A stretch of 64,000 nt of DNA from an uncultured Granulosicoccaceae bacterium (GCA_938007995.1 CALLLW010000012.1:47379-111378), one strand, 5' to 3'; shown: positions 10,630 through 62,101, numbered from the stretch's first letter. Program-made: numbers and translations. Notes: a model not told the origin generated them from the sequence alone.

Positions 10630-12141
10630 TTGTCTCGATCTTCTTTAAACCGCAATTCCCTGAGGTACATTTTGCTTACTTTCAAACGAATTTTTGCGCT
10701 AGGTTCGCTGGCGCTAATCGCTGCGTCATCACCGGCCAGCTACGCACAACTTCCCGCCTGCCAGAGCCCTTCATCAGATTCTGACGGCGACGGCTACGGC
10801 TGGGAAAACAACGCATCCTGCCTGGTCACCACTGCAACTTCCAGCCAGGCAAGTAACCAGAACAACAATCAGTCAGCATCCGCTTCTGGTCTGCGCAGCT
10901 GCGCTTCTGCATCAAGCGACCCGGACGGCGATGGTTATGGCTGGGAAAACAACGCTTCCTGTCTGGTCACCGCGTCTTCCGGTGCCGGCAATTCAAACGC
11001 TGCGCCCGCGGCGCCAATGGCTTTACCAGCGGCCTCGGGGCGTGTTGCCTGTGTCAGCGCAGCCAGCGATCCTGACGGAGATGGTTTTGGCTGGGAGAAC
11101 AACGCCACTTGTATTGTGTCAGCCAACAGCGCTGCGCCTGATACCATGACAGCACCGGCAGCCGTTCCTGCAGCACCGGTCACAGACAACAGCAACTCAG
11201 CAAACACCGGTAACTCTGGTAATCGCACATCCAGCCTGCCGATAGTCGCCAGCCGCTCTGCGACAGTCGATTCATCCGGTGGCGACCGGTTTGCAACCGA
11301 ACGGGTTGGTGATTTTCTGCTGATGCAAAACGCCTGGCGTGCAGAGGCTGCAGCACCCGGTCACGATTGGTCACAAACCATCCAGCTCAACAACAACGGT
11401 GCACCGGTCAGCTGGACTTACGACTGGGGTCCGGGCGTACCGGGAGCCAATGGTCGACCTTCGGCTGACTTTTTCGTTCGTTCCTATCCGGAACTGATCT
11501 TCGGTATAAAAGATGAGTTCCGCACCAGCGCACCAAAGGCAGAGATTGGCTTCCCGGTTCGGGTTGACAGCATACCAACTGTCAAAATCGACTATGCCTA
11601 CAATTCGCAGGAGTTCGGTGGATCCAGAACAGTTGATGCCTCCGTTACTCCACGTTTTCCAAACGGCACGACAATTCAGGGCGAAAGAAATGTTGCGGCA
11701 GAATCTTTTCTGTATGAATCCGTGAACGGCGTCTGCAATGACGACCTGCCGGTTGATCGCTCAAACGGTTCAAACCACACCTATGAAGTCATGGTCTGGC
11801 TTGATTCCGGTGCCGAGCGCTTGCCGGCAGCTTCGCGCAACTTTGTAACCACCATATCACTGCGCGGTGCCAACTATGATGTCTACACCAAGAGTGACGA
11901 CTCACGTTACATCGCGTTTGTTGCACAGAATCCGCAGACCAGCGGCACCATCTACTGGAACGATTTTCTGAACTGGGCACGGCTTAACGCTCACCGGGTT
12001 TCAGAGCAGTTCGGCGCGCTGGCCAATTCGGTACAGATTCAGGATTCCTGGTGTGTTGCCAACATATTGGTGGGTACCGAGATCTTCTGGGGTGCGGGCA
12101 GCTTTGATTTGTTTGAGTGGACCATCACACAAAGCCAGTAA
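10630..12141 (+). CDS. secreted GH12-like glycoside hydrolase with 3 N-terminal C..SDxDGDG[YF]GWEN..C modules
   Basis: 503 aa with a signal peptide (..LALIAASSPASYAQ). It has three 23-aa two-Cys modules. The C-terminal roughly 270 aa carry GH12-type motifs: QNAW, SYPELIFG, YEVMVWL (putative nucleophile Glu), YIAFVAQ and GTEIFWGAGSF (putative acid/base Glu). The TTG start is uncertain. Confidence 0.6.
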   Translation: MSRSSLNRNSLRYILLTFKRIFALGSLALIAASSPASYAQLPACQSPSSDSDGDGYGWENNASCLVTTATSSQASNQNNNQSASASGLRSCASASSDPDGDGYGWENNASCLVTASSGAGNSNAAPAAPMALPAASGRVACVSAASDPDGDGFGWENNATCIVSANSAAPDTMTAPAAVPAAPVTDNSNSANTGNSGNRTSSLPIVASRSATVDSSGGDRFATERVGDFLLMQNAWRAEAAAPGHDWSQTIQLNNNGAPVSWTYDWGPGVPGANGRPSADFFVRSYPELIFGIKDEFRTSAPKAEIGFPVRVDSIPTVKIDYAYNSQEFGGSRTVDASVTPRFPNGTTIQGERNVAAESFLYESVNGVCNDDLPVDRSNGSNHTYEVMVWLDSGAERLPAASRNFVTTISLRGANYDVYTKSDDSRYIAFVAQNPQTSGTIYWNDFLNWARLNAHRVSEQFGALANSVQIQDSWCVANILVGTEIFWGAGSFDLFEWTITQSQ

Positions 12142-12235
12142 CGACAACATAATTTATGGTGTAGAACAAAGATAAAGGGTCAAACACGCCGATAACTCAC
12201 AATCGGCACGCACTTGACCAGAAGTTGTAACTAAG

Positions 12236-12273
12236 CGGCAGTCAGGTCAACCACCTGACTGCCGTTTTTTTTT
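12236..12273 (+). terminator. rho-independent terminator
   Basis: A perfect 12-bp stem (cggcagtcaggt / acctgactgccg) with a 5-nt loop (caacc), followed by a T9 run. Confidence 0.8.
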
Positions 12274-12325
12274 GCCTGCCCGGAAACCTTGCTCTTTTTT
12301 CGTCATGACGTATAATGTGAATCCT

Positions 12326-13558
12326 ATGTTAAGAATTACCAATAATATTGCAGTAAATCTGCTTGCGTTGCTTGTAACAACCACGCTGATTTCAGCCTGC
12401 GGCAGCTCTTCTGACGCCCAGCCCGATAATCAATCCGGCACGACGCCCCCCGCCGATGCACCAGTTGCCGGAAGCAACGCCGGCTTGCTCAGCAGTGCAA
12501 CACCCAGGTTTTCATGGAATGCAGTTGAAGATGCCGATGCTTACCAGCTGTTGCTGACAGAAGCAGAAGGCAACACCATCACTTACGATGTTTCAACAGC
12601 GTCCTGTGCCGGTACAGAATGCAGCGTCACCCCGGGCGCGGCTTTTTATAACAATCAAATCAGCTGGCAGGTTAACGCGCTGATTAACAGCCTCGACAGT
12701 GAAGATGAACCTGTTATTCAACAGGCTGCCAGCGGCAATTATGCAACACCGCGATCATTCGATCTGACACCGGTTACATCAAATGAAGCCGTCTGTAGTG
12801 TCTGGCCTTCTATCTCTTACGACGATGTGATCATTCTGAATAACATCTGGAACGTTGGTACCGTCAACAGCAACGCTTGGTCACAAAAGATTGCCGCCAC
12901 TGCCGATGCCACTGGAAGCTCAAGCCCGATTGCATCGTGGACTTATGACTTTTTGTCAGAAACAGATGGCGACCGTACTGCGGTGAAAGCTTATCCGGAG
13001 ATCATCTACGGCAACAAGCTCGGTACTCATGTATCAGCCAGTAAAGCAGAAACCGGCCTGCCGGAAACAGTCACCAGCCTGCCGGAGTTCACTGTTGATT
13101 TTGCCTACAGCGAAACCTTTGATGGTGAAGTTGAACGCAACGTGGCACTTGAGTCTTTCTTTCACACCTCATGCGATATTACCGGCCCGTGCGATTTTGA
13201 TGATAATCGAGCGTATGAAATGATGGTGTGGGTTGCCAATCCCGAGTCTAATCGGCCGGGTGATCTGGCACTGACCGGCGTCAGCATTGACAACCGCTTG
13301 TGGGATGTCTACATCAAACCCCGCAGCGATAAAAAATATATTGCGTTTACCGCACAAACCCCTTTTACCGAAGGCACGTTGAACTGGAATCGTTTTGTTG
13401 AATGGACCATGCAATGGACCGCAGAAAACTCAGAGGCACTACAGATCAATGCATTAACACCTGATCTGTGTATGGCAGCCATCGAAATGGGCACAGAACT
13501 GTGGTGGGGCAAAGGCTCTTTCACGCTGGACCATTTTGAAGTGCGCAGAACTCAATAA
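12326..13558 (+). CDS. GH12-like glycoside hydrolase lipoprotein (no GWEN modules; N-terminal small Cys-containing domain)
   Basis: The lipoprotein signal is MLRITNNIAVNLLALLVTTTLISAC. The track start at 12272 lies inside the upstream terminator T-run, so I prefer the ATG at 12326 (alternative 12305). GH12-type motifs are LNNIWN, AYPEIIYG, YEMMVWV, YIAFTAQ and GTELWWGKGSF. Confidence 0.6.
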   Translation: MLRITNNIAVNLLALLVTTTLISACGSSSDAQPDNQSGTTPPADAPVAGSNAGLLSSATPRFSWNAVEDADAYQLLLTEAEGNTITYDVSTASCAGTECSVTPGAAFYNNQISWQVNALINSLDSEDEPVIQQAASGNYATPRSFDLTPVTSNEAVCSVWPSISYDDVIILNNIWNVGTVNSNAWSQKIAATADATGSSSPIASWTYDFLSETDGDRTAVKAYPEIIYGNKLGTHVSASKAETGLPETVTSLPEFTVDFAYSETFDGEVERNVALESFFHTSCDITGPCDFDDNRAYEMMVWVANPESNRPGDLALTGVSIDNRLWDVYIKPRSDKKYIAFTAQTPFTEGTLNWNRFVEWTMQWTAENSEALQINALTPDLCMAAIEMGTELWWGKGSFTLDHFEVRRTQ

Positions 13559-13663
13559 CTTAAAACCATACGTTCTCTACAAAAGCATTCAGCGACGCCA
13601 GTACAACTAGAATAACGCCAAAATACCACCCTGTTTCTCTGTATTCACAGTCTGGAGTTTGTT

Positions 13664-15511
13664 ATGAAAGTCAATAAAACGCTGCTTGCAATTGCAGCAG
13701 CAGTGGCAGCGTCATCAAATGCTTTTAACGTGCAGGCGCAGAGCCTCTCTCTGCCAACCTGTCAGTCGGCGACTTCAGATCCTGACGGTGATGGCTACGG
13801 ATGGGAGAATCGTAGCTCCTGTCGCGTTGCTTCAGTTGAAATAGACGCTGCTATCAATCCAGCTACCGCAAACAGCAGCAATTTGAATCAACCGGTCTTC
13901 TTCTGCCAGAGTGCAGCATCAGATTCAGATGGTGACGGGTTTGGATGGGAAAACAACCGGTCCTGTGTAGTGGCGGTTGACAGTGGCGATCTTCTGCCCG
14001 GCGCAGTAGAGTTCCGCGCCACTTGTCAGTCGGCTGACAGCGATCCGGATGGCGACGGATTTGGCTGGGAAAACAATCAAACCTGCGAGGTTGCTGGCGG
14101 CACAGCCCAAGAAAACAGCGTAAACAGCCAGATAACCAGCATTTGTAACTCATCTGCCAGCGACCCTGATGGCGATGGTTTCGGTTGGGAGAACAATCAA
14201 ACCTGTGTGGTATCAACCGACCTCGGCACTGATGACGACGGCACCGGCAGCGGATTTATTCCGCGTAACATTTGTACATTTGCCAGCAGTGATCCTGATG
14301 GTGACGGATTCGGCTGGGAGAATAACGCAACCTGCATCGTAAACAGCAGCAGCGTCGATGATGGTGGCGAACCACCGCCGGAAGAAAACTTTCCAGCAGA
14401 AAACTCTGCAGCAGAAAATATTGCAGAAGAAGATAACGCTTTTATAGCGCTCAGCCCTTCCGGCGTATTAGCCAGTGGCACACCGACTTTTCAGTGGCGT
14501 GCACTTGCCAATGCAGAGATGTACACACTGGCAGTTGCCGATTCAGCAGGCAACGGTTATGCGTTTGACATTGATCCTTTAACCGCTGGCTGTGCTGCCG
14601 GTGGCACCTGCTCTGCCACACCGGATCTCGCCTACTACGATAACGATCTTACCTGGCGTGTTAAGACTACTGTTGCAGGGACGGAAGGTCCGGAAACACA
14701 GCGTGTTTCCATTACCACACCGCAAAACATCAATGTACAGCCGGTTAAATCCGGTCAGTGCGAAGCATGGCCTTCAGTTGCTTATGACAACTTTATTGTC
14801 TTGAACAACTCCTGGAATTCAAGAGCCATGCATAGCAGTGACTGGACGCAAAAGATCTTCGTTCATGAAGATACACTCGGCAATGTAACTCCAACATGGA
14901 CCTACGACTGGCTCGGTCAGTTTGACGGTGGTGAGATCGATGTTAAAGCGTATCCTGAAGTGTTGTATGGACCGAAACTCGGCACACACATATCCGGTAC
15001 CAAAGAAGAAACCGGCTTGCCCGAGCTGGTACGTGATCTGCCCGAGTTCGTTGTAGATTACTCATACACAGAAACCGGTAACGCAGAACGTAACGTCGCG
15101 CTGGAATCTTTCTTCCACGACTCATGCAACATAGCCGGCCCATGCGATGAAGTAGACAACCGTGCTTATGAAATGATGATCTGGGTAGAAAACCCTTCCA
15201 TTAGAACACCGGGCCAACTGGCATTAACCGGTGTGATGGTTGATAACCGTTTGTGGAATGTATACATCAAACCGAACAGCAATAAGCACTACATTGCATT
15301 CACCGCACAGAACTCTCAGCCAAGCGGTACGATCAACTGGAACCGTTTTGTTGAATGGACTGCAGCATGGACTGCCGAAAATGCTGAAGATCTCGGCATT
15401 GATGTGCTCTCACCTGAGTTTTGCATGGGAGCTATCGAATTCGGCACAGAAATGTGGTGGGGTGAAGGATCATTTACTTTGAATCAATTCGACGTCTCAT
15501 TCTCACGTTGA
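13664..15511 (+). CDS. secreted GH12-like glycoside hydrolase with 5 C..SDxDGDG[YF]GWEN..C modules
   Basis: 615 aa. GGAG lies 7 nt upstream of the ATG, and there is a signal peptide (AAAVAASSNAFNVQA). It has five two-Cys modules and the same small domain as the previous gene (TPTFQWRALANAEMYTL...). The GH12-type core carries LNNSWN, AYPEVLYG, YEMMIWV, YIAFTAQ and GTEMWWGEGSF. Confidence 0.6.
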   Translation: MKVNKTLLAIAAAVAASSNAFNVQAQSLSLPTCQSATSDPDGDGYGWENRSSCRVASVEIDAAINPATANSSNLNQPVFFCQSAASDSDGDGFGWENNRSCVVAVDSGDLLPGAVEFRATCQSADSDPDGDGFGWENNQTCEVAGGTAQENSVNSQITSICNSSASDPDGDGFGWENNQTCVVSTDLGTDDDGTGSGFIPRNICTFASSDPDGDGFGWENNATCIVNSSSVDDGGEPPPEENFPAENSAAENIAEEDNAFIALSPSGVLASGTPTFQWRALANAEMYTLAVADSAGNGYAFDIDPLTAGCAAGGTCSATPDLAYYDNDLTWRVKTTVAGTEGPETQRVSITTPQNINVQPVKSGQCEAWPSVAYDNFIVLNNSWNSRAMHSSDWTQKIFVHEDTLGNVTPTWTYDWLGQFDGGEIDVKAYPEVLYGPKLGTHISGTKEETGLPELVRDLPEFVVDYSYTETGNAERNVALESFFHDSCNIAGPCDEVDNRAYEMMIWVENPSIRTPGQLALTGVMVDNRLWNVYIKPNSNKHYIAFTAQNSQPSGTINWNRFVEWTAAWTAENAEDLGIDVLSPEFCMGAIEFGTEMWWGEGSFTLNQFDVSFSR

Positions 15512-15675
15512 AGCACCACACAAATAAGTAAGGCTCGCGGTTAAAGTCAGTAGTCAACAAACTGCGATCATCATTTAATGATCGCAGCCACAAAACCCCA
15601 CCTCGGCTCTCTACCTTTTGAGGCCACCGTCGATAGGTTTGTCTAACGTCACTTTATCCGTCGGCAGAGGTTGAG

Positions 15676-15900
15676 ATGCAGAGCACACGGGAACATCTTG
15701 AATCGGTTAATGAAACCTACTTCGAGCACATGGCGCATGCCAGTGGCTTCGGCTTAAAGCTTATCTTCGCAGGCTTCGCCTGTTTACTGCACGGTTTATT
15801 TCCATCGCTCTGCTGCGCTACCGGCAGCAAGACAGTAAAAGACCTTCACGATGCGATGGTAGTAAACAGGGTGAAGACAGTAGACTGCAAACAGTCTTAG
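15676..15900 (+). CDS. DUF6356-like small membrane protein
   Basis: 74 aa. ETYFEHMAHASGFGLKLIFAGFACLLHGLFPSLCCATGSKTVKDLHDAMV matches my memory of the DUF6356 family pattern. Not verified. Confidence 0.45.
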   Translation: MQSTREHLESVNETYFEHMAHASGFGLKLIFAGFACLLHGLFPSLCCATGSKTVKDLHDAMVVNRVKTVDCKQS

Positions 15901-16468
15901 CGAGTTTTATCTGACTTCCATTCCAGGCTCCACACACTCACTTGGCACTCGGTAGCGTCACGGACCCACCCTTCAATCATTACCACAACTCCCAATTCTA
16001 CGCGACAGACGCCTACGTAGTGATACGTGTCATGGCGAGTACTGTTGCCGTCATCAACAATGCTACGGTCATTTGAGGCGTATCGTTGTTCATACGTAAC
16101 AAGTTCGATTGATCATTACCGTTGCCTTGGGCGTGCCGTTGCTGTCGGCGTACCGTCTATGGGCGCGTTCACAGCGCCCAGATGTTCTGCCACGCACACT
16201 CCTGGCTGGTGCAATTGCTGTAACCAGCAAAACTTCAGCTGTTTTTGTGAAAAAGTGCTTCAGCGACATCCTTTCTGCGTAATACACAAGCATATGAAGG
16301 CAAGGTTCAGTATGCTGGACGTACTCTAGCCTCAATTCAGCGAAGCACTCACACACTATCGCAGGATTCCCGGCAAGCTTGATCTTCGTTGTGCGTGATG
16401 TTGGAAAACATCACAAGCGAAGTCGAATACAGGCAAGTTCCTGCAGTCATCCATAGGAGTCATTAGAA

Positions 16469-17731
16469 ATGTCATTACCACTTAGTTTGCGCAGATGCGC
16501 CTTGTCAATGATTACAGCTGCCGCTCTATCGCTGGCAGTAGTTCCGTCAGTTTATGCAAACGGGCCCGTTATCACTGTTGTGGGCGAAAATACAGGCGAA
16601 CTGCAGCTCAATAATCCGGTGAGGTTTCAGGGCACTGCTGTTGATCCGGATGGCATCGGATTATTCTTTCCCGCTATCCAGAATGCCAGCACTGGCCGTT
16701 ACATTAACCAACAGGGTGGCAACAGCAATAAAGCGGAGAAATTAAAATTCAAATTCACCGGTGATCAATGGGTATCACAAAGCTTTAACTTGCCGCGTGG
16801 AAATTATGTCTTCAGCATTCGGGCACAGGACAAACGTAAAAATATTTCTCGATATGTAAAAGTTCCGTTTGTAGCAACCGGTGTGAAAGGTCCGGCGCTT
16901 GCTGCGGCTCCCGCTAACAATCAACGCCAACCGGCCAACAGCGGCACAAGTGCGGTACCCCGTATCGCCGTTCAATTTCCTAAAGACGGCGCGCGGCTCG
17001 ACAAGGCTTCTGCCTTCAGTGGTGTTGCTGCTGACGATCAGGCGGTTGCCGGAGTCATTGCAACTATCATGGATACGGCCACCGGCCAGTTTCTAGCCCC
17101 GAATGGCAAGTTCGCCCGCAGCGGGCAGTTCAAGATACGCACTGTGGGTGGCAAGAGTGCTCAGTGGTCGACGCCACAGGTGCAATTACCACCGGGCGAC
17201 TACATGCTGTCAGTTAAAGCGGTGGACAACAACAACCAGGAAAGCAGCTGGGCGCAAAGCAGATTTACTATTGTACAGCCGCAGCGAACCGCAACTGCAG
17301 CGGCACCCCAGGTTAACAACCAGACAAATAATCAGGTTGTGGCATCCAGCGCTGCAGCTAACGGCTTAGCCTATTGCGGCAATGGCAGTGCAGACGCAGA
17401 CGGCGACGGATACGGCTGGCAAAACCAGGCATCCTGCGTTGTGAAAGGTTCAAAGGCAGACACGCATCCTAACTGTGCCTCGGCGGCTTCTGATCCGGAT
17501 GGTGATGGCTACGGTTGGGAAAACGAAAAATCCTGCATCGTTGTGGTTCACTGCGCATCATCCAATTCAGACCCGGACGGCGACGGCTTTGGCTGGGAAA
17601 ACCAGCGCAGCTGCGTGGTGCTTAATACCACCGGCGGTGGTCAGTTTCCTCGCTGCGCGAATGGAGCTGCATCAGATCCGGATGGCGACGGCTACGGCTG
17701 GGAGAACAATGCGACTTGCCTGGTTAACTAA
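16469..17731 (+). CDS. secreted protein: 2 Ig-like beta-sandwich repeats plus 4 C..SDxDGDG[YF]GWEN..C modules, no catalytic domain recognised
   Basis: 420 aa. AGGAG lies upstream of the ATG, and there is a signal peptide (AALSLAVVPSVYA). Two internally homologous roughly 100-aa segments are present (..LPRGNYVFSIRAQDKRKNIS / ..LPPGDYMLSVKAVDNNNQES), followed by four two-Cys modules running to the very C-terminus. Confidence 0.7.
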   Translation: MSLPLSLRRCALSMITAAALSLAVVPSVYANGPVITVVGENTGELQLNNPVRFQGTAVDPDGIGLFFPAIQNASTGRYINQQGGNSNKAEKLKFKFTGDQWVSQSFNLPRGNYVFSIRAQDKRKNISRYVKVPFVATGVKGPALAAAPANNQRQPANSGTSAVPRIAVQFPKDGARLDKASAFSGVAADDQAVAGVIATIMDTATGQFLAPNGKFARSGQFKIRTVGGKSAQWSTPQVQLPPGDYMLSVKAVDNNNQESSWAQSRFTIVQPQRTATAAAPQVNNQTNNQVVASSAAANGLAYCGNGSADADGDGYGWQNQASCVVKGSKADTHPNCASAASDPDGDGYGWENEKSCIVVVHCASSNSDPDGDGFGWENQRSCVVLNTTGGGQFPRCANGAASDPDGDGYGWENNATCLVN

Positions 17732-17901: not shown

Positions 17902-18555
17902 TTGTCAGTGCCTGCCACCCCCGTCCAATTTATCGATCTGCTGAGCAGCTTCGTGTTCAAGCGTCGGCCAATGATCGTTGCTGTTGTACTGATTGCACTG
18001 AGCTCCTGCTCAACCCTGCCAATCAGCGCCACACAGAATATCTGCAATATTTTCAGCGTGAAAAACAGTTGGTATCGCTCTGCCAGTGATATGCAGGAAA
18101 AATGGAATATTCCGCTGCATGTGCCAATGGCGGTCATGTACCACGAGAGTAAGTTTCGCCGCAAAGCCAAGCCGCCAAGACGCTATGTGCTTGGAGTCAT
18201 ACCCGGCAAGCGACGCAGCTCGGCATACGGATACTCTCAGGCACTCGATTCCACCTGGGCGGCTTACGTTAACCAGACAAAAAGTTACGGTGCCAGTCGC
18301 ACCCACTTTGACGATGCGATTGATTTTGTCGGCTGGTATATGACCAAATCACATGCACTTGCGAAGATCGCGCACGACGACCCGTACAACCAGTACCTGG
18401 CGTACCACGAGGGCTGGACCGGTTATCGCAACGAATCATACAAAAGAAAGCCATGGCTGATGCGCGTTGCATCCGAAGTTGTCGCTACCGCAGACAACTA
18501 CAAACAGCAACTGCGTGGCTGCGAGGCATCACTCCAACGCAGACTCAGACGCTAG
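17902..18555 (+). CDS. SLT-type lytic transglycosylase-like lipoprotein
   Basis: A lipobox follows the internal Met (MIVAVVLIALSSCS), so the true start is probably near 17971. MAVMYHESKF provides the catalytic Glu context, and AYGYSQALDSTW is typical of SLT-domain proteins. Confidence 0.55.
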   Translation: MSVPATPVQFIDLLSSFVFKRRPMIVAVVLIALSSCSTLPISATQNICNIFSVKNSWYRSASDMQEKWNIPLHVPMAVMYHESKFRRKAKPPRRYVLGVIPGKRRSSAYGYSQALDSTWAAYVNQTKSYGASRTHFDDAIDFVGWYMTKSHALAKIAHDDPYNQYLAYHEGWTGYRNESYKRKPWLMRVASEVVATADNYKQQLRGCEASLQRRLRR

Positions 18556-47349: not shown

Positions 47350-50300
47350 CTACAACTCAACCACCGCGCAATTATCGAACACAGCCGAGTCGTCAGCATA
47401 CAACGTGACCGCACCACGTGCGGTACCGGCAGGCGCAGTCTCGCCCACGACAACCGTGGTGAATGCCGTACCAGCTACGCTGCTTTCGTTGCTTGCGAGC
47501 CCGGTGAACTCAACATCTGAGAAGCCGATGGTCAGACTTGCAAAGGCGGTCGAGCTGGCTGAACAACTCACCGCATACTCGCTGCCCGGAGTCGCCTCAA
47601 ACTCCTGAAATGCACAGCTGGTGGTGCCAAGAACCAGCGCATCTGTGTTGTCCGGCCCCAGCGCTTCAATCTCGGTTGAACCACCACACGAAAGCCACTC
47701 GGTACCACCGTTAGAAAAATCACCGTTACTCAGCAGGTTATCTGCAGGATCAACCACGACCACCGGCTCTGGTGTTACCCCACCGGTAATCACTACACCG
47801 CAGCTGTCAAACGACGCGTCTGATTCACCGAATAACGTCACTGCACCATAGCGCGCGTTATCTGAAGCTGTGATTGCGATTGCGCTATTCTGAAAAAGCC
47901 TGCCGACCACTTGCTGTTGTTGAGAACTTAGCTCGGCAAATGTGCTGTCGTATTCAATGAAAGAAACACTGGCAAAGCCGTCGTTGCTCTTGCCAACACA
48001 GGCGAGCGAATATTCAGCACCTGGAATCAAAGTGAACTCCTGAAACAGACATCCGCTGTTAGTGAGGTTGACCGACTGCCCCCCGTTGACTCCGTCAGTA
48101 GTCAGCGTTTGTTGTCCACCACATCCAAACCAGCCATCGAGATTATTGGTGAATGTCGAGTTGATCAGTAATTCGTTCACAGCAGGCTCTACAGCGACCG
48201 GAACAGTAGTAGCCAGATCTTCAAGCACAATACAATTATCAAAATTTGCCTGATCTGCAGCATAAAGGGTAACCGCACCCTGGACGCTGCCAGCCGGAGC
48301 CACAACCGACGTAGTGATCGGTGCACCACTGGTGCTGGTGACTGCAACAAGCTCAGATTCCAGCGCTGCAAAGCTTGCATCACTAACGCTCAGCTGGACA
48401 CTCGCAAAGCCTGCAGGTGCTGCAGCATCACATCTCAATGTATAGGTTGCATTCGGTGTGACGCTAAACTCCTGAAACAGGCAACCGCCTGAACTCAAAG
48501 AGGCAGTACCACCACTGACAGTCGCCTGACCACCGCACGACACCCAGTCAGATAAATCTGTATTAAAACCACCGTTGCTTACCAGGTTATCCGGATTTTC
48601 AGGGCTGGATGGCGCAATCACCGGTGCAGCAGAAGGCAGCAAGGCTTGTCTGTTTACAGCACCTGACTCATAGGAAACCTCAAGCGTTTGACCACCGCTG
48701 CGCTGAAAGTACTCAACCACAATGTCGTGCTCTCCCGCGGTCAGGTTGATGCTGCCTTGTTGCTCTTCGGCACGGTGCAATCCATCGTTATCAACGACTA
48801 GCTGGCCATTTACATACAATGCGCTGCCATCATCCGATACAGTGTAGAACGTATATTCATCCGCTTGTGAAACATACAGTGTTGTGTTGTAGCGAAAACC
48901 GAAGAATCGCGCTTGCTCTTTCGGGTCAGTAGAAAACTCTGTCAGCTCGCCAGTGGCGACCGGTGTTAGCGCGTCAAAATCCGGCAATGCAGCCCACGTA
49001 CCTTCATAGTATTCATACGCGATCACTGCTTGCGATGGTGCTGAAGGTGTTGAAGGCGCTGCGGGTGCTGTCGGGTTAAAAGGAATCACCTGTTCAACCG
49101 GCACCGCCTGGTTACCCTGGTCATCCAGCGGCACCAGAAATGCTGCCAGACTCTGTTTGGTGATCAGCGGTCCCTGCATCTGCACTGATAGAGACTCCAG
49201 CCCGCCCTTTTCGAAGTAAGTAACAACAATTTCATGCGTACCGGCAGATAAGCCAACACTGCCCTGAGCTTCTCTCGAAGCGTGTAACCCGTCATTATCT
49301 ACAACCAGACGACCATTAACGAATAACTGACTACCATCATCCGAGTTGGTAAAGAAAGTGTAGTTACCTTCCTCTGTGATCGATATGGTTGCGCTAAAGC
49401 GAAATCCAAAGTTTTCATCCGCCAACCTTTCGCTGGTGCTGAAATCACCGGTCTCACCAGTTGCCACTGGTGTTAATGCGTCAAAGTCAGGTAACTCATC
49501 CCACTCACCTTCGTAATACTCAAAGCTAATAAAAGACGGGGGTTCAGGAACATTTTCAGCGGTTGGATTGATCATAATAGTATGGCCTTCTGATGGCACA
49601 CCGTTTTGATTCAGCCCGAACACCCAGTAGTAACCTGGAATAAGAACGTTGCTGTTAGAAGGCAACTGTACGTTGTAGTTTCCGTTAGACGTCTCGACGA
49701 ATCCCAGTGGAATAAAACGCTGATCAGTTGAATGATGATGCGTCAGTGCCATCAAGCGCACCATCGAAAAGGTTTGCAGACCGGCAGTGGCTGAAAACTG
49801 CAGTGCCTGGCCGGCTATCGCCTCTGCTGGTCCTGATGCAATTTGCGGCCGGGTAGCGCGAGTTCCATCATTATTAAACAGATACGGCGGCTCGAATATC
49901 TCACCGTTTCTCTGATTGGTGGCGCAGTTTCCGCACAGCCCGCTGCCCATCGCCGCGACGCGGCCATCCTTAAGCAACATGGCGGTAGAGTGATAGTTAC
50001 GTGGTCTGCTGTGCGGTGCAAGCACCTGCCATTGACCTGTATCCGGATCCCATAGCTCTGGAAACAGTTGTGTTCCTTCATCAGAAAACTGTATCCCACT
50101 ACTGTTGCCACCAATCACCAGCACCTGACCGTTCGGCAGTACCACACTATCCTGCATTGAACGTTCATACGTCATTGGTTCGGTAGCAGTGACTACCGGC
50201 GTGGTGCCATTTAAATCAATGGTCATAGCCGTATTCACCGCCGGCTGACCACCACCTGCAACCAGCATCTTACCGATGTCATACATCACAGTAGTATTGT

Positions 50301-51219
50301 ACAAACGGTGCTGGTCTTCAGACTCACGCTTACCATGTGGTATGACCGTAGAACCGTTGGTGTAAAGGTCAAGACTGAGTAGATTAGTCGTCGGCCCCGG
50401 GTGAAACAGGCTACCGTCGGGTGCGACATTAAACGCAGGAAACCAGGTACGCTGATTATTCTTCGCTGCAGTATCACTGGTGATCTGTTGTAAATTTGTA
50501 CGCGGCAGGGTTCTCCAGCCTTCCCCTTCAGTCCACAACTCGGAATTGGCGGTGGTTTTACCCAGTGCAATAAAAACCTGACCACTCGGCAGTGTGGTAC
50601 TGGTGGGATACCAGCGCGGTGTATTCAATGAATCGGTCAGGCTCCAGCTGTTACCGTCAAACACACTGTTGGTGGTTATAGTCGCACCACCACCTGAAGT
50701 AAGTACATTGCCATCAGGCAGCATCGCCACACCGGAGCAAAACATGTTGTGGTTATCATTCGGCATATCAGTGAACGATTCTGTTACCGGGTCGAAGATT
50801 GAGCCATGTGTAAAAGCCGTGTTTGTACCAAACCCCTCTACCCTTGTTGAAGACCAGGTCAGCAACCGGCCGTCAGGCATATGCGCAGCACCAGTGGCAA
50901 TCTGAGGCCACTCAATTAGATCACCCCAGCGTCCAAGGTTGATATTTTCAGACGCATCGTGCGCTGCACCAATCTCCGGCGGTACCACAAAAGCCGGGTA
51001 GTCCTGCGCCAGCACCGCCCAGTACTCATCATCTTCGATAATGCCGGAACTGGAACCGGACGTGCTATCAGTACCACCTGTACCACCGGAAAAATCGGTG
51101 TTGCCGGTTTCAGGCACCGCTGACGACTCAGCACCTTCGATCCCGAGCGGGTCACCGTCACACGCGGACAGTAAGACTGAAAGAACCGCAATTGCAGAAC
51201 AATATTTAACAGCGGACAT
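47350..51219 (-). CDS. secreted lipoprotein: galactose-oxidase-like copper radical oxidase (AA5-type) + DUF1929-like Ig domain + 2 PA14 domains + 3 CBM4/9-like modules
   Basis: The preferred start at 51219 is preceded by AAGGAG and gives a lipobox (AVLSVLLSAC). Candidate active-site motifs are HNMFCSGVAMLPDG, RWYPTSTTLPSG, RNYHSTAMLLKDGRV and LTHHHSTDQRFIPL. There are two YEYYEG...SDDGS.L.VNG.LVVDNDGLH PA14 repeats and three N(L)(L/V)SNGxF...W..CGG...C.FQEF...FD.C modules. Confidence 0.7.
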   Translation of the reverse strand: MSAVKYCSAIAVLSVLLSACDGDPLGIEGAESSAVPETGNTDFSGGTGGTDSTSGSSSGIIEDDEYWAVLAQDYPAFVVPPEIGAAHDASENINLGRWGDLIEWPQIATGAAHMPDGRLLTWSSTRVEGFGTNTAFTHGSIFDPVTESFTDMPNDNHNMFCSGVAMLPDGNVLTSGGGATITTNSVFDGNSWSLTDSLNTPRWYPTSTTLPSGQVFIALGKTTANSELWTEGEGWRTLPRTNLQQITSDTAAKNNQRTWFPAFNVAPDGSLFHPGPTTNLLSLDLYTNGSTVIPHGKRESEDQHRLYNTTVMYDIGKMLVAGGGQPAVNTAMTIDLNGTTPVVTATEPMTYERSMQDSVVLPNGQVLVIGGNSSGIQFSDEGTQLFPELWDPDTGQWQVLAPHSRPRNYHSTAMLLKDGRVAAMGSGLCGNCATNQRNGEIFEPPYLFNNDGTRATRPQIASGPAEAIAGQALQFSATAGLQTFSMVRLMALTHHHSTDQRFIPLGFVETSNGNYNVQLPSNSNVLIPGYYWVFGLNQNGVPSEGHTIMINPTAENVPEPPSFISFEYYEGEWDELPDFDALTPVATGETGDFSTSERLADENFGFRFSATISITEEGNYTFFTNSDDGSQLFVNGRLVVDNDGLHASREAQGSVGLSAGTHEIVVTYFEKGGLESLSVQMQGPLITKQSLAAFLVPLDDQGNQAVPVEQVIPFNPTAPAAPSTPSAPSQAVIAYEYYEGTWAALPDFDALTPVATGELTEFSTDPKEQARFFGFRYNTTLYVSQADEYTFYTVSDDGSALYVNGQLVVDNDGLHRAEEQQGSINLTAGEHDIVVEYFQRSGGQTLEVSYESGAVNRQALLPSAAPVIAPSSPENPDNLVSNGGFNTDLSDWVSCGGQATVSGGTASLSSGGCLFQEFSVTPNATYTLRCDAAAPAGFASVQLSVSDASFAALESELVAVTSTSGAPITTSVVAPAGSVQGAVTLYAADQANFDNCIVLEDLATTVPVAVEPAVNELLINSTFTNNLDGWFGCGGQQTLTTDGVNGGQSVNLTNSGCLFQEFTLIPGAEYSLACVGKSNDGFASVSFIEYDSTFAELSSQQQQVVGRLFQNSAIAITASDNARYGAVTLFGESDASFDSCGVVITGGVTPEPVVVVDPADNLLSNGDFSNGGTEWLSCGGSTEIEALGPDNTDALVLGTTSCAFQEFEATPGSEYAVSCSASSTAFASLTIGFSDVEFTGLASNESSVAGTAFTTVVVGETAPAGTARGAVTLYADDSAVFDNCAVVEL

Positions 51220-51370
51220 GGATAACTCCTTTTTCATCACCCACGCGTCGCGCAAAAAAGACACCGACTCGTCTCTCTGAAGATCGATATCACAAAATCG
51301 GCAACGGGCACTCAAGTTCTATTAAACTGAAGATCGACAAGTCTGATCGATAAAACCGCCTGCTCTGCCT

Positions 51371-60346: not shown

Positions 60347-62101
60347 CTACACCGCCCAGCACCCAAGCGTCTGCTGTTTCTCGACGTGCAGATCTATGCT
60401 GCATGGTTTTTTGCAGGCATCCTCCGGCTCACCAGGCATTTCAAAACGACGCAGAAATGTTTTTATGCGATCACAATCTTTGTGCTTATCCAGAATTTCC
60501 TGATCGATCCAGTGCAACTTGCCATCTTTAAAAACCACAGACACCAATGCTGAATTCTGATCTGCGAAACGCACGGTTTTTATAGAGGCAATACATCTTG
60601 ATATGAATTTTTCATTGGTATCTTCCAAACCGAGATCCTGAAATACCTGCTCCGGCGTTGTTGCATCAATATTGATCTTTCGATACCGATCAATGTTTTG
60701 CATCAAAGAAAAATCAAGGATGTTCAGCTCATGATTACAGCCAAACGCTACTGTCTTTGGTACATTGCCTTTGGGTACATTATTATCGAGAAATTCAAAA
60801 CGTACCCGTTTATCATCAGACATTACCCAAGATAAAAACAGCTCCGGCATGCCGGTATAGGCTTCCACATTGTGGTACAAAAGATCATCAACAGATTTAT
60901 AGCGCCCGGTTGTTTTACCTCTCTCCCATGCGCGTTCAACCGTTTCTGCCGGCGGGGTGATCATAAAAAATAAAAAGATCTGATCTCCAAAACGCGACAG
61001 CAGCCTTGAATCATGACTACGACCTTTTTCAACACTGAAGCTATCAAAACGAAAACGGTCAATCAGTAAGTGAGGAATCTCACCCAGTGACGCCTTGCGC
61101 TCCATATAACGATCAAGCTTAGCGTCTATCAGCGCAAGCTCCTGCCCTGTCAGCATTGCTGCATACTTAAAATGCTCACCCACAGAACTATAATCAAGCA
61201 GGTATTTTCTCCAGTAGTCAGGACTGATCACAGCAAATTCGTGCCATGGAATATCGAGCTTTTCGGCAAGCTCCCGTTGCTGCTGCCGAATAGAGCTCTT
61301 GCCCGAAGCCGAAGCCCCTTTAACGTTCATGACCACGGGCTTAGTTTGAAGAGGCAACTTTTTAAAGCCCTCGGCGATCACAGCGCGGTTGAATATTGGC
61401 TCAACCATCGTGGCAATCAGGTTGTTGCCAATCTCGTTGGAAGCAAGACCAACGGCAATCTCTGCTAACAACTCCGGCTGATTAACTAACCGCCCACGAT
61501 GCCTGATCACTGCAGTCACCGTGGTATCCAATGCATTCAAACAAACCACCTGATGACTGTCCGCACCCTCAGCTAACAATCTGCGCCACTCGCTCAGTGC
61601 AGCAGGTTCTAACGGATCTTCTGATGGTGCCGTTGGCTTCGGCGTACGCTTAAACCAGCGAGTCAGTAAAGAGCCTGACTGCGGCGCAGGCTCAGCTCGA
61701 CTAAACAAACGACTACCGATCTGATTGTCTATAAATATTTGTGCTTTATTAACCTCCGAATCATGGGCTTGCTGAAGCGATGGCATTTCAGGCAGCAGGT
61801 AGTTCTGATAAATACTCGCAACCATCGAACGCAAGCTGATACCCAGATCTTCGTAGTTCGGGCCGTCCGGTACAAACAGATCGCAGGTGACTTTAACCAA
61901 CAGCTCGTGTATCACCAGGCGCTGAGGTCGGAACACCATCAGTTGTTCCGATTTAAGCCCACAAAAATCAGCCAACTCGCGAGCTTTGACATAATCCACT
62001 GTCGACACTTCATTTCGGAACAGTGTGACTTCAGGCAGCAGAGAGGCAGGAATACTCGATCGAAGACCGGGCGCCCAGGCGTTATATTCATCTGAGCGCA
62101 T
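60347..62101 (-). CDS. uncharacterised 584-aa protein with central P-loop kinase (zeta-toxin/AAA_33-like) domain
   Basis: Walker A is VMNVKGASASGKSSI and a Walker-B-like motif is PHLLIDRF. The lid-like segment FFMITPPAETVERAWERGKTTGRYKSVDDL is present. The N-terminal roughly 250 aa and C-terminal roughly 130 aa were not recognised. Confidence 0.5.
   Translation of the reverse strand: MRSDEYNAWAPGLRSSIPASLLPEVTLFRNEVSTVDYVKARELADFCGLKSEQLMVFRPQRLVIHELLVKVTCDLFVPDGPNYEDLGISLRSMVASIYQNYLLPEMPSLQQAHDSEVNKAQIFIDNQIGSRLFSRAEPAPQSGSLLTRWFKRTPKPTAPSEDPLEPAALSEWRRLLAEGADSHQVVCLNALDTTVTAVIRHRGRLVNQPELLAEIAVGLASNEIGNNLIATMVEPIFNRAVIAEGFKKLPLQTKPVVMNVKGASASGKSSIRQQQRELAEKLDIPWHEFAVISPDYWRKYLLDYSSVGEHFKYAAMLTGQELALIDAKLDRYMERKASLGEIPHLLIDRFRFDSFSVEKGRSHDSRLLSRFGDQIFLFFMITPPAETVERAWERGKTTGRYKSVDDLLYHNVEAYTGMPELFLSWVMSDDKRVRFEFLDNNVPKGNVPKTVAFGCNHELNILDFSLMQNIDRYRKINIDATTPEQVFQDLGLEDTNEKFISRCIASIKTVRFADQNSALVSVVFKDGKLHWIDQEILDKHKDCDRIKTFLRRFEMPGEPEDACKKPCSIDLHVEKQQTLGCWAV

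Follow-up and report, generated by a model that had tools for sequence, protein, structure and literature searches.

Canonical carbohydrate-binding modules of family 10 (CBM10), represented by that of Cellvibrio japonicus Xyn10A (1E8R/1QLD), carry four cysteines and a C-N-W-Y-G-T N-terminal strand with Tyr8, and are type A binders of crystalline cellulose with micromolar dissociation constants (Kd) for Avicel, which the short form of the family is not (PMC4642672, PMC8121702). This short form is a clade of CBM10 in which Cys5 and Cys38 are lost, Tyr8 is substituted and 5-6 residues are inserted before Trp22 (Morrill 2015, PMC4642672; Møller 2021, PMC8121702). Its binding to soluble carob galactomannan is weak, with a Kd of 0.3 g/l for the Bifidobacterium module and of 0.4 mg/ml for SdGH5CBM10-2, and soluble mannan is the sole ligand measured for the clade; neither of the two measured members bound Avicel or ivory-nut mannan significantly (PMC4642672, PMC8121702), and SdGH5CBM10-2 did not bind hydroxyethyl cellulose (PMC8121702). 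In the enzyme of the 2021 study, strong binding was obtained only with all three modules together (PMC8121702), and the clade was stated in 2015 to be exclusive to mannanases (PMC4642672). Here we report that twelve two-cysteine repeats, found in three exported proteins of an uncultured Granulosicoccaceae bacterium, are probably short-form CBM10s (PF02013, CAZy CBM10) of the clade that was first recognised in the GH5_8 mannanase of Bifidobacterium animalis, and are predicted to bind glycan. The proteins are encoded in a stretch of 64,000 nucleotides (nt) (GCA_938007995.1 CALLLW010000012.1:47379-111378), which as a whole is referred to below as the window.

By scanning the whole 64 kb in six frames with a regular expression, we found exactly twelve copies of C-x5/6-D-x-DGDG-[YF]-GW-[EQ]-N-x2-[ST]-C, all on the + strand, and no thirteenth copy in any of the six frames, while only 2e-9 chance matches to the 11-residue core are expected in six frames. 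Three copies lie in the protein encoded from nt 10630, five in that encoded from nt 13664 and four in that encoded from nt 16469 (the proteins are named by these positions), in agreement with the initial annotation of this DNA in number, distribution and coordinates. Counted from the first letter of the window, the modules located by the scan are:

10759-10821, 10900-10962 and 11050-11112, + strand: modules 1-3 of the 10630 protein
13760-13822, 13904-13966, 14024-14086, 14144-14206 and 14273-14335, + strand: modules 1-5 of the 13664 protein
17375-17437, 17474-17536, 17552-17614 and 17654-17719, + strand: modules 1-4 of the 16469 protein

Each module has two cysteines, and these, together with D-x-DGDG, G-W and N, are unchanged across 12/12 copies. 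The Cys-to-Cys span is 21-22 residues rather than the 23 given initially, with the copy at 17654-17719 having one additional residue before the Asp loop and hence a span of 22, not 21. The first copy of the 16469 protein departs from the SD of the consensus proposed at the same time, having A-D in its place, and it has Q instead of E. Likewise, the linkers had been described as always rich in Ser, Ala, Asn and Gln, which is true of the 10630 protein only; those of the 13664 protein are mixed, and those of the 16469 protein measure only 12, 5 and 13 residues, modules 2 and 3 being joined by the five residues IVVVH.

The twelve copies have a mean identity of 72% at the amino acid level and 65% at the nucleotide level, and where residues are identical, identity at the third codon position is only 44%. 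Therefore, the copies are ancient and have been kept by purifying selection at the protein level. Recent tandem duplication of the DNA as the source of the repeats is ruled out by this divergence at synonymous sites. We conclude that the twelve-module repeat is real and functional.

Scored over the whole protein against PF02013 (CBM_10, gathering score 23 bits), the 10630, 13664 and 16469 proteins reached 51.4, 67.7 and 54.4 bits, respectively, all above the cut-off, so that the module does belong to a named domain, although it had initially not been recognised as one. It had also been thought about half the size of a CBM10; with its short lead-in, however, the short form extends over as much as positions 4-36 of a model that has 36. 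Moreover, the short modules of Streptomyces (42.6 bits) and B. animalis (43.0 bits) mannanases outscore a canonical Cellvibrio CBM10 (38.5 bits), which, taken with this coverage, indicates that the Pfam model is built to hold the short form and that the latter is not "half a CBM10". In the PDB, a profile built on all twelve copies matched 1E8R/1QLD over GWGWEDQRSCIARSTCA (17 residues, E 0.015), and an hhalign comparison of 101 short modules (alignment A2) with nine canonical CBM10s (A4) gave a probability of 98% (E 2.2e-13), in which the Pro-x-Cys lead-in, the inner Cys pair and the hairpin were aligned with a single five-residue gap (DPDGD). Both comparisons bear out the kinship of the GWEN..SC half to the C-terminal half of CBM10 that had been noticed from the start. 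When the whole 13664 protein was searched against the PDB by phmmer, CBM10 was not reached; it was reached by the module profile alone. NCBIfam holds no model for the module, and homologues are already annotated as "CBM10 domain-containing protein" or "carbohydrate-binding domain-containing protein" in the source databases.

The two forms share the core Pro-x-Cys ... G-W-G-[WY]-E-[ND]-x-x-S-C-[IV], whereas the four cysteines and the Tyr8 strand are found in the canonical form only, which has no DPDGD insertion. Judged from these alignments, the short form is homologous to the core of canonical CBM10; the outer disulfide and the Tyr8-bearing N-terminal strand have been lost, and D-x-D-G-D has been gained before a Gly that was already there. 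Six Cellvibrionaceae proteins (L035, L085, L086, L092, L103 and L113) carry both forms, the four-cysteine canonical one and the short DPDGDG-type, in one chain, as does the S. degradans mannanase of the 2021 study (PMC8121702). Still shorter relatives stand beside normal modules in two metagenomic proteins, P0092 and P0111 (C-I-DTDGDGYGWDG-SKT-C and EC-V-DPDGDGYGWNG-MHS-C), where just 1-2 residues stand between the first Cys and the Asp loop, and W-[DN] is followed by G instead of N.

For the published clade, sequences were checked in the B. animalis subsp. animalis GH5 mannanase gene (L114), which has four CSSASVDPDGDGWGWENNQSC modules, and in genes for 383-aa Streptomyces GH5 mannanases (L010, L011) with one ...SDPDGDGWGWENNxSC module each; the Bl-04, S. 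lividans and S. degradans proteins were compared by published description. Because the SD-x-DGDG-aromatic-GWEN-xx-SC core is matched in these mannanase genes, the window module is, by its sequence, assigned to the published BlMan5_8/SdGH5CBM10-2/SlMan5A clade. It shares with BlMan5_8 and its relatives the single disulfide pair without Cys5/Cys38, the lack of the Tyr8 strand, the insertion before the first hairpin aromatic (the five-residue DPDGD gap), and the single or tandem use on secreted enzymes; the absence of the outer disulfide and of the C-N-W-Y-G strand from the window modules is a published hallmark of the subclade (PMC4642672) and no ground for exclusion. Unlike that clade, the window copies have Tyr or Phe at the first Trp, mostly lack the aromatic-Pro lead-in, stand mostly at the N-terminus rather than the C-terminus, are fused to GH12-like or Ig-like domains rather than mannanases, and score singly 18-26 rather than 43 bits. 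The module, first presented as an unrecognised domain, thus largely maps onto a published CBM10 clade with two measured members.

A profile search of 1.84 billion representatives (E<=1e-3) retrieved 1061 clusters (50% identity), in which a single protein has as many as nine modules. Across 832 modules from 237 proteins, the loop was conserved as D 97%, D/N 96%, G 88%, D 96% and G 98%, followed by an aromatic residue in 99% (W 52, F 25, Y 22%), G in 99%, W in 83%, E in 92%, N in 83% and S/T in 96%; the two cysteines were kept in 93% and 99%. The cysteines and Asp residues, whose conservation had initially been posed as decisive, are therefore well preserved in homologues. Genomes, one per species, were further scanned with a degenerate DNA pattern for D-x-DGDG-[WYF]-GWEN, which gave at least 116 stretches. 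Among the matches listed, to which all genome counts below refer, were Streptomyces and other actinomycetes, Bifidobacterium, Cellvibrionaceae, Catenovulum, Vibrio, Oligoflexus, Bdellovibrionales, Polyangiales, Burkholderiales and Reichenbachiella; many metagenome-assembled genomes (MAGs) of Granulosicoccaceae formed the largest group, and several MAGs carry 4-5 or more module-bearing loci each. A Reichenbachiella MAG (L002:2709-7829, + strand) encodes a 1707-aa Bacteroidota protein with one short CBM10 at residue 303, beta-propeller-like repeats, leucine-rich repeats and a C-terminal sorting-type domain, a context unlike glycoside hydrolases.

Partner domains in 112 open reading frames (ORFs) of these genomes were GH5 (29), GH26 (15), SASA (11), CBM2 (9), PL14 (6), Big_9 (5), GH12 (5) and GH134 (4). 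The mannanase families GH5, GH26 and GH134 are thus the largest partner group (48/112 ORFs), though not an exclusive one. The subset of 65 ORFs from Granulosicoccaceae/Chromatiales had SASA (11), PL14 (6), Big_9 (5), GH12 (5), Cadherin_5 (4) and GH5 (2), with single cases of CotH, di-haem peroxidase and VWA; GH26 and GH134 were not found as partners there. In this subset the modules are mostly N-terminal, with 3-4 copies common, and the first aromatic residue in 128 modules was F in 35, Y in 49 and W in 44, while it was Trp in 43/43 actinobacterial and 36/36 "other" modules. A literature search for Granulosicoccaceae together with CBM10 found nothing, and the non-mannanase contexts and the frequent Tyr/Phe variant in this family were not found in the literature searched.

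The insertion D-x-D-G-D and the pre-existing Gly complete the linear motif Dx[DN]xDG, to which the D-x-DGDG of the modules is an exact match and which serves to bind calcium in nearly the same way across many unrelated folds, where an acidic ligand usually follows at a later position (Rigden 2011, PMC3123361). As with such loops in EF-hands, thrombospondin (TSP) type 3 repeats and bacterial dockerins, a later acidic residue is available in the module, namely the Glu conserved at 92%; this Glu is also kept in canonical CBM10, which has no such loop. It is the six-residue motif alone that is shared with these three, not their folds. A Pfam scan of the window proteins gave no Dockerin_1, TSP_3, TSP3_bac or EF-hand match at E<=1, and EF-hand, TSP3 and bacterial dockerin were rejected on this ground as the family of the module; against a bacterial type I dockerin (PF00404; two roughly 22-residue F-hands), the structural models also show a turn plus beta-hairpin and no F-hand helices. 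The calcium loop suspected initially thus stands as a linear motif but not as an EF-hand or TSP3 domain. The second PDB match of the module profile was the gingipain adhesin domain, through DADGDGHGW; this cleaved-adhesin domain (3KM5/4ITC) shares D-x-DGDG-x-GW with the module, and its calcium-binding context is listed in PMC3123361. Taken together, the module loop looks like a calcium site and is predicted to be one. The word calcium is absent from PMC4642672 and PMC8121702 and is mentioned in a 2022 paper only for the S. lividans enzyme (PMC8952944), and our motif-string and keyword literature searches found no paper tying the CBM10 insertion to calcium, the motif strings themselves turning up in two unrelated papers only.

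The proteins that carry the modules, together with a module-less paralogue encoded between two of them, have the following features:

10630-12141, + strand: exported protein of 503 aa with a signal peptide, three short-form CBM10s, linkers and a C-terminal divergent GH12-like domain (CBM_10 51.4 bits)
about 11272-12138, + strand: GH12-like domain of the 10630 protein (29% identity to the 13664 GH12 domain)
11785-11787 and 12079-12081, + strand: candidate catalytic Glu386 and Glu484 of the 10630 protein (from motifs)
12272-13558, + strand: module-less paralogue with a lipoprotein-like N-terminus (LISAC lipobox), a roughly 90-aa domain and a GH12 domain at about 12860-13537 (PF01670, 42.6 bits)
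12272 protein, residues about 62-150, + strand: roughly 90-residue domain (paralogue alignment)
12272 protein, Glu316 and Glu409, + strand: glutamates of the GH12 motifs
13664-15511, + strand: exported protein of 615 aa with a signal peptide, five short-form CBM10s, a roughly 90-aa domain and a GH12 domain (CBM_10 67.7, GH12 33.1 bits)
about 14435-14698, + strand: roughly 90-residue domain of the 13664 protein, residues about 258-345 (shared with the 12272 protein; paralogue alignment)
about 14759-15508, + strand: GH12 domain of the 13664 protein (PF01670)
15170-15172 and 15449-15451, + strand: candidate catalytic Glu503 and Glu596 of the 13664 protein (from motifs)
16469-17731, + strand: exported non-catalytic protein of 420 aa with a signal peptide, two Ig/Fn3-like beta-sandwiches and four C-terminal short-form CBM10s (CBM_10 54.4, Y_Y_Y 27.2 bits)
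about 16559-16888 and 16961-17278, + strand: Ig/Fn3-like domains of the 16469 protein (AlphaFold2 secondary structure)

The motifs YE[VM]M[VI]W and GTE[IML][FW]WG, which in GH12 hold the nucleophile and acid/base glutamates, are both found in the 10630, 12272 and 13664 proteins. The 12272 and 13664 proteins are matched by PF01670 and are 53% identical over 366 aa; Pfam matches nothing in the C-terminal half of the 10630 protein, which is tied to GH12 by the motifs and by its identity to the 13664 domain, so that the GH12-like neighbours proposed earlier are confirmed. A phmmer search of the 13664 protein against the PDB matched the GH12-like 5M2D (E 0.0046). The roughly 90-residue domain that precedes the GH12 domain in both paralogues (FxW...Y.L...CA.G.CS..P...Y.N...W.V) has no Pfam match. 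Signal-peptide-like starts were read from the sequence on all three carrier proteins, and the lipobox on the 12272 protein. Orthologues of the 10630 protein with the same architecture occur at two Granulosicoccaceae MAG loci, L006 (62%) and L014 (57%), and orthologues of the 13664 protein at L111 (57%) and L066 (45%).

An alignment of 22 sequences (A6), consisting of the 16469 protein and 21 close homologues of identical architecture, showed that the four modules are nearly invariant and form the most conserved region, whereas the Ig-like domains are only about 55-60% identical. Each module position carries its own signature, which suggests position-specific roles of the four modules: module 1 is nearly always D-A-DGDG-[FY]-GWQN, and modules 2 and 3 are fused via an invariant C-IVV[VT]H-C. 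Foldseek with the full 16469 model returned generic tandem Ig/Fn3 matches only.

The order SDR, flavodoxin, esterase and three modules plus GH12-like domain is common to the window, L006 and L014, and L111 shares with the window the order 10630-like, 13664-like, 16469-like, SLT_4 and amidase. Among the Granulosicoccaceae MAG loci listed, L069 is the closest relative of the window, with an 85% identical amidase. Directly 3′ of the 16469-type gene lies an SLT_4 lytic-transglycosylase-like gene (17902-18555, + strand), and this pairing is conserved in Granulosicoccaceae MAGs (L069, L111, L116, L047 and L110). A small DUF6356 ORF (15676-15900, + strand; L001 8606-8830) is located between the 13664 and 16469 genes. 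Farther away, a 584-aa ORF (60347-62101, − strand) has no Pfam match, and a 1321-aa protein (47350-51315, − strand) with Glyoxal_oxid_N, a galactose-oxidase-like E-set, two PA14 and CBM_4_9 appears to be a large secreted protein of copper-radical-oxidase type that also bears domains for carbohydrate binding.

The unit of about 30 residues comprises a short lead-in, one Cys pair and a beta-hairpin with [W/Y/F]-G-W. By analogy with characterised relatives, one face of the hairpin, with its two aromatic side chains, would offer a glycan chain a weak binding surface, and the repetition of modules along flexible linkers would raise the apparent affinity by avidity. In this way the modules could keep both the GH12-like enzymes and the Ig-like protein at or close to polysaccharide. 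Going by the motif, the insertion and the Gly would form a calcium site that would make the loop stiffer and might make up for the disulfide that was lost. In the AlphaFold2 model of the third 13664 module (34 residues; predicted local distance difference test score, pLDDT, 81.7), a short turn precedes a beta-hairpin (19-22/25-28) that carries the [WYF]-G-W, and this turn-plus-hairpin pattern recurs four times in the full-length 16469 model.

Several observations weigh against the assignment to glycan-binding short-form CBM10 or against parts of it. Scored singly against PF02013, five window modules gave the borderline values of 26.4, 23.8, 23.2, 22.4 and 17.7 bits (23.8 from the 10630 protein, 26.4 and 22.4 from the 13664 protein), three at or just above 23 bits and two below. 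Foldseek with the 34-residue model against the PDB yielded nothing significant (best E 4.8), so that the fold identity rests on sequence profiles. Calcium binding is predicted from the motif, and the thermal stability of the S. lividans mannanase is reported to be affected by calcium and not by its CBM10 (PMC8952944). The mannan ligand may not transfer to the window modules, given their Tyr/Phe for Trp and their GH12-like and Ig-like rather than mannanase partners, and Møller et al. allow that some CBM10s may be mere spacers (PMC8121702). The Foldseek result, and the mere 17 residues over which the PDB profile search aligned a solved CBM10, would both suit a new unnamed mini-domain that came to resemble CBM10 in GWEN..C by convergence. 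Such an origin is nonetheless highly improbable, since the hhalign alignment takes in the Pro-x-Cys lead-in, both inner cysteines and the hairpin, since PF02013 spans the short form end to end and scores that of mannanases above the canonical one, and since phylogenies based on dbCAN/CAZy already put the short form in CBM10 (PMC4642672, PMC8121702); as far as the sequence evidence goes, a wholly new domain is excluded.

Granted the family, the function could still differ. Were the module a calcium-stiffened spacer, it would have lost useful glycan affinity and serve mainly as a rigid, protease-resistant bead between linkers that sets the reach of the catalytic domain, which would agree with the low affinities measured in the clade and with the retention of two of the three platform aromatics, the first being Tyr/Phe in the window. 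We regard this as unlikely: conservation of the [WYF]-G-W pair at 99% and 83% over the 832 modules is hard to explain by spacing, conservation in the 16469 orthologues, which have no catalytic domain to space, is highest in the modules, and both measured clade members bind galactomannan. Slightly less likely still is a dockerin-like assembly or surface tag, which in Granulosicoccaceae would bind a protein partner or a cell or host surface and gather unrelated secreted proteins. PF02013 does include the fungal (Neocallimastigomycota) dockerins, which like 1E8P are small and disulfide-stabilised, and the Dx[DN]xDG loop recalls bacterial dockerins; the heterogeneous partners in the 65 Granulosicoccaceae/Chromatiales ORFs, with GH26 and GH134 absent, and the MAGs with several module-bearing loci point the same way. 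Fungal dockerins typically occur in tandem copies on many different secreted enzymes. They are, however, eukaryotic protein-binding modules with another cysteine pattern and no DxDGDG loop, and the match of our model to 1E8P, at the second rank of the Foldseek search, was not significant (E 5.2, TMq 0.43). In Cellvibrionaceae, the ordinary cellulose-binding CBM2 and CBM10 likewise tend to have heterogeneous partners, the nearest characterised relatives of the module are glycan binders, no cohesin-like or scaffoldin partner was identified, and neither a Dockerin_1 match at E<=1 nor F-hand helices in the model were obtained; the cohesin/dockerin-like tag offered in the initial annotation therefore received no positive support. 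A broader proposal, which we put forward tentatively and hold to be possible rather than probable, is that the insertion makes the whole clade calcium-dependent, calcium replacing the stabilising role of the lost outer disulfide, and that the Granulosicoccaceae module was co-opted as a general tag for a common marine or host-surface glycan or surface receptor, not mannan. In keeping with the latter part, the module is found in Granulosicoccaceae on dozens of unrelated secreted proteins, such as SASA esterases, PL14 lyases, GH12-like enzymes, Ig/cadherin-like proteins and a di-haem peroxidase.

Since the module is already CBM10 in database annotation, its identification as a short-form CBM10 mostly changes nothing; what look new, and are modest, are the calcium motif in the insertion and, in Granulosicoccaceae, the attachment to proteins other than mannanases and the Tyr/Phe variant. 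A calcium site could explain the odd binding of this low-affinity clade and its stability on one disulfide. The clade is not confined to mannanases, and is a common appendage of secreted proteins in kelp- and invertebrate-associated Granulosicoccaceae. Given the Tyr/Phe in the binding face and the many non-mannanase carriers, the ligand in Granulosicoccaceae may differ, which would bear on how these abundant surface-associated bacteria target polysaccharides.

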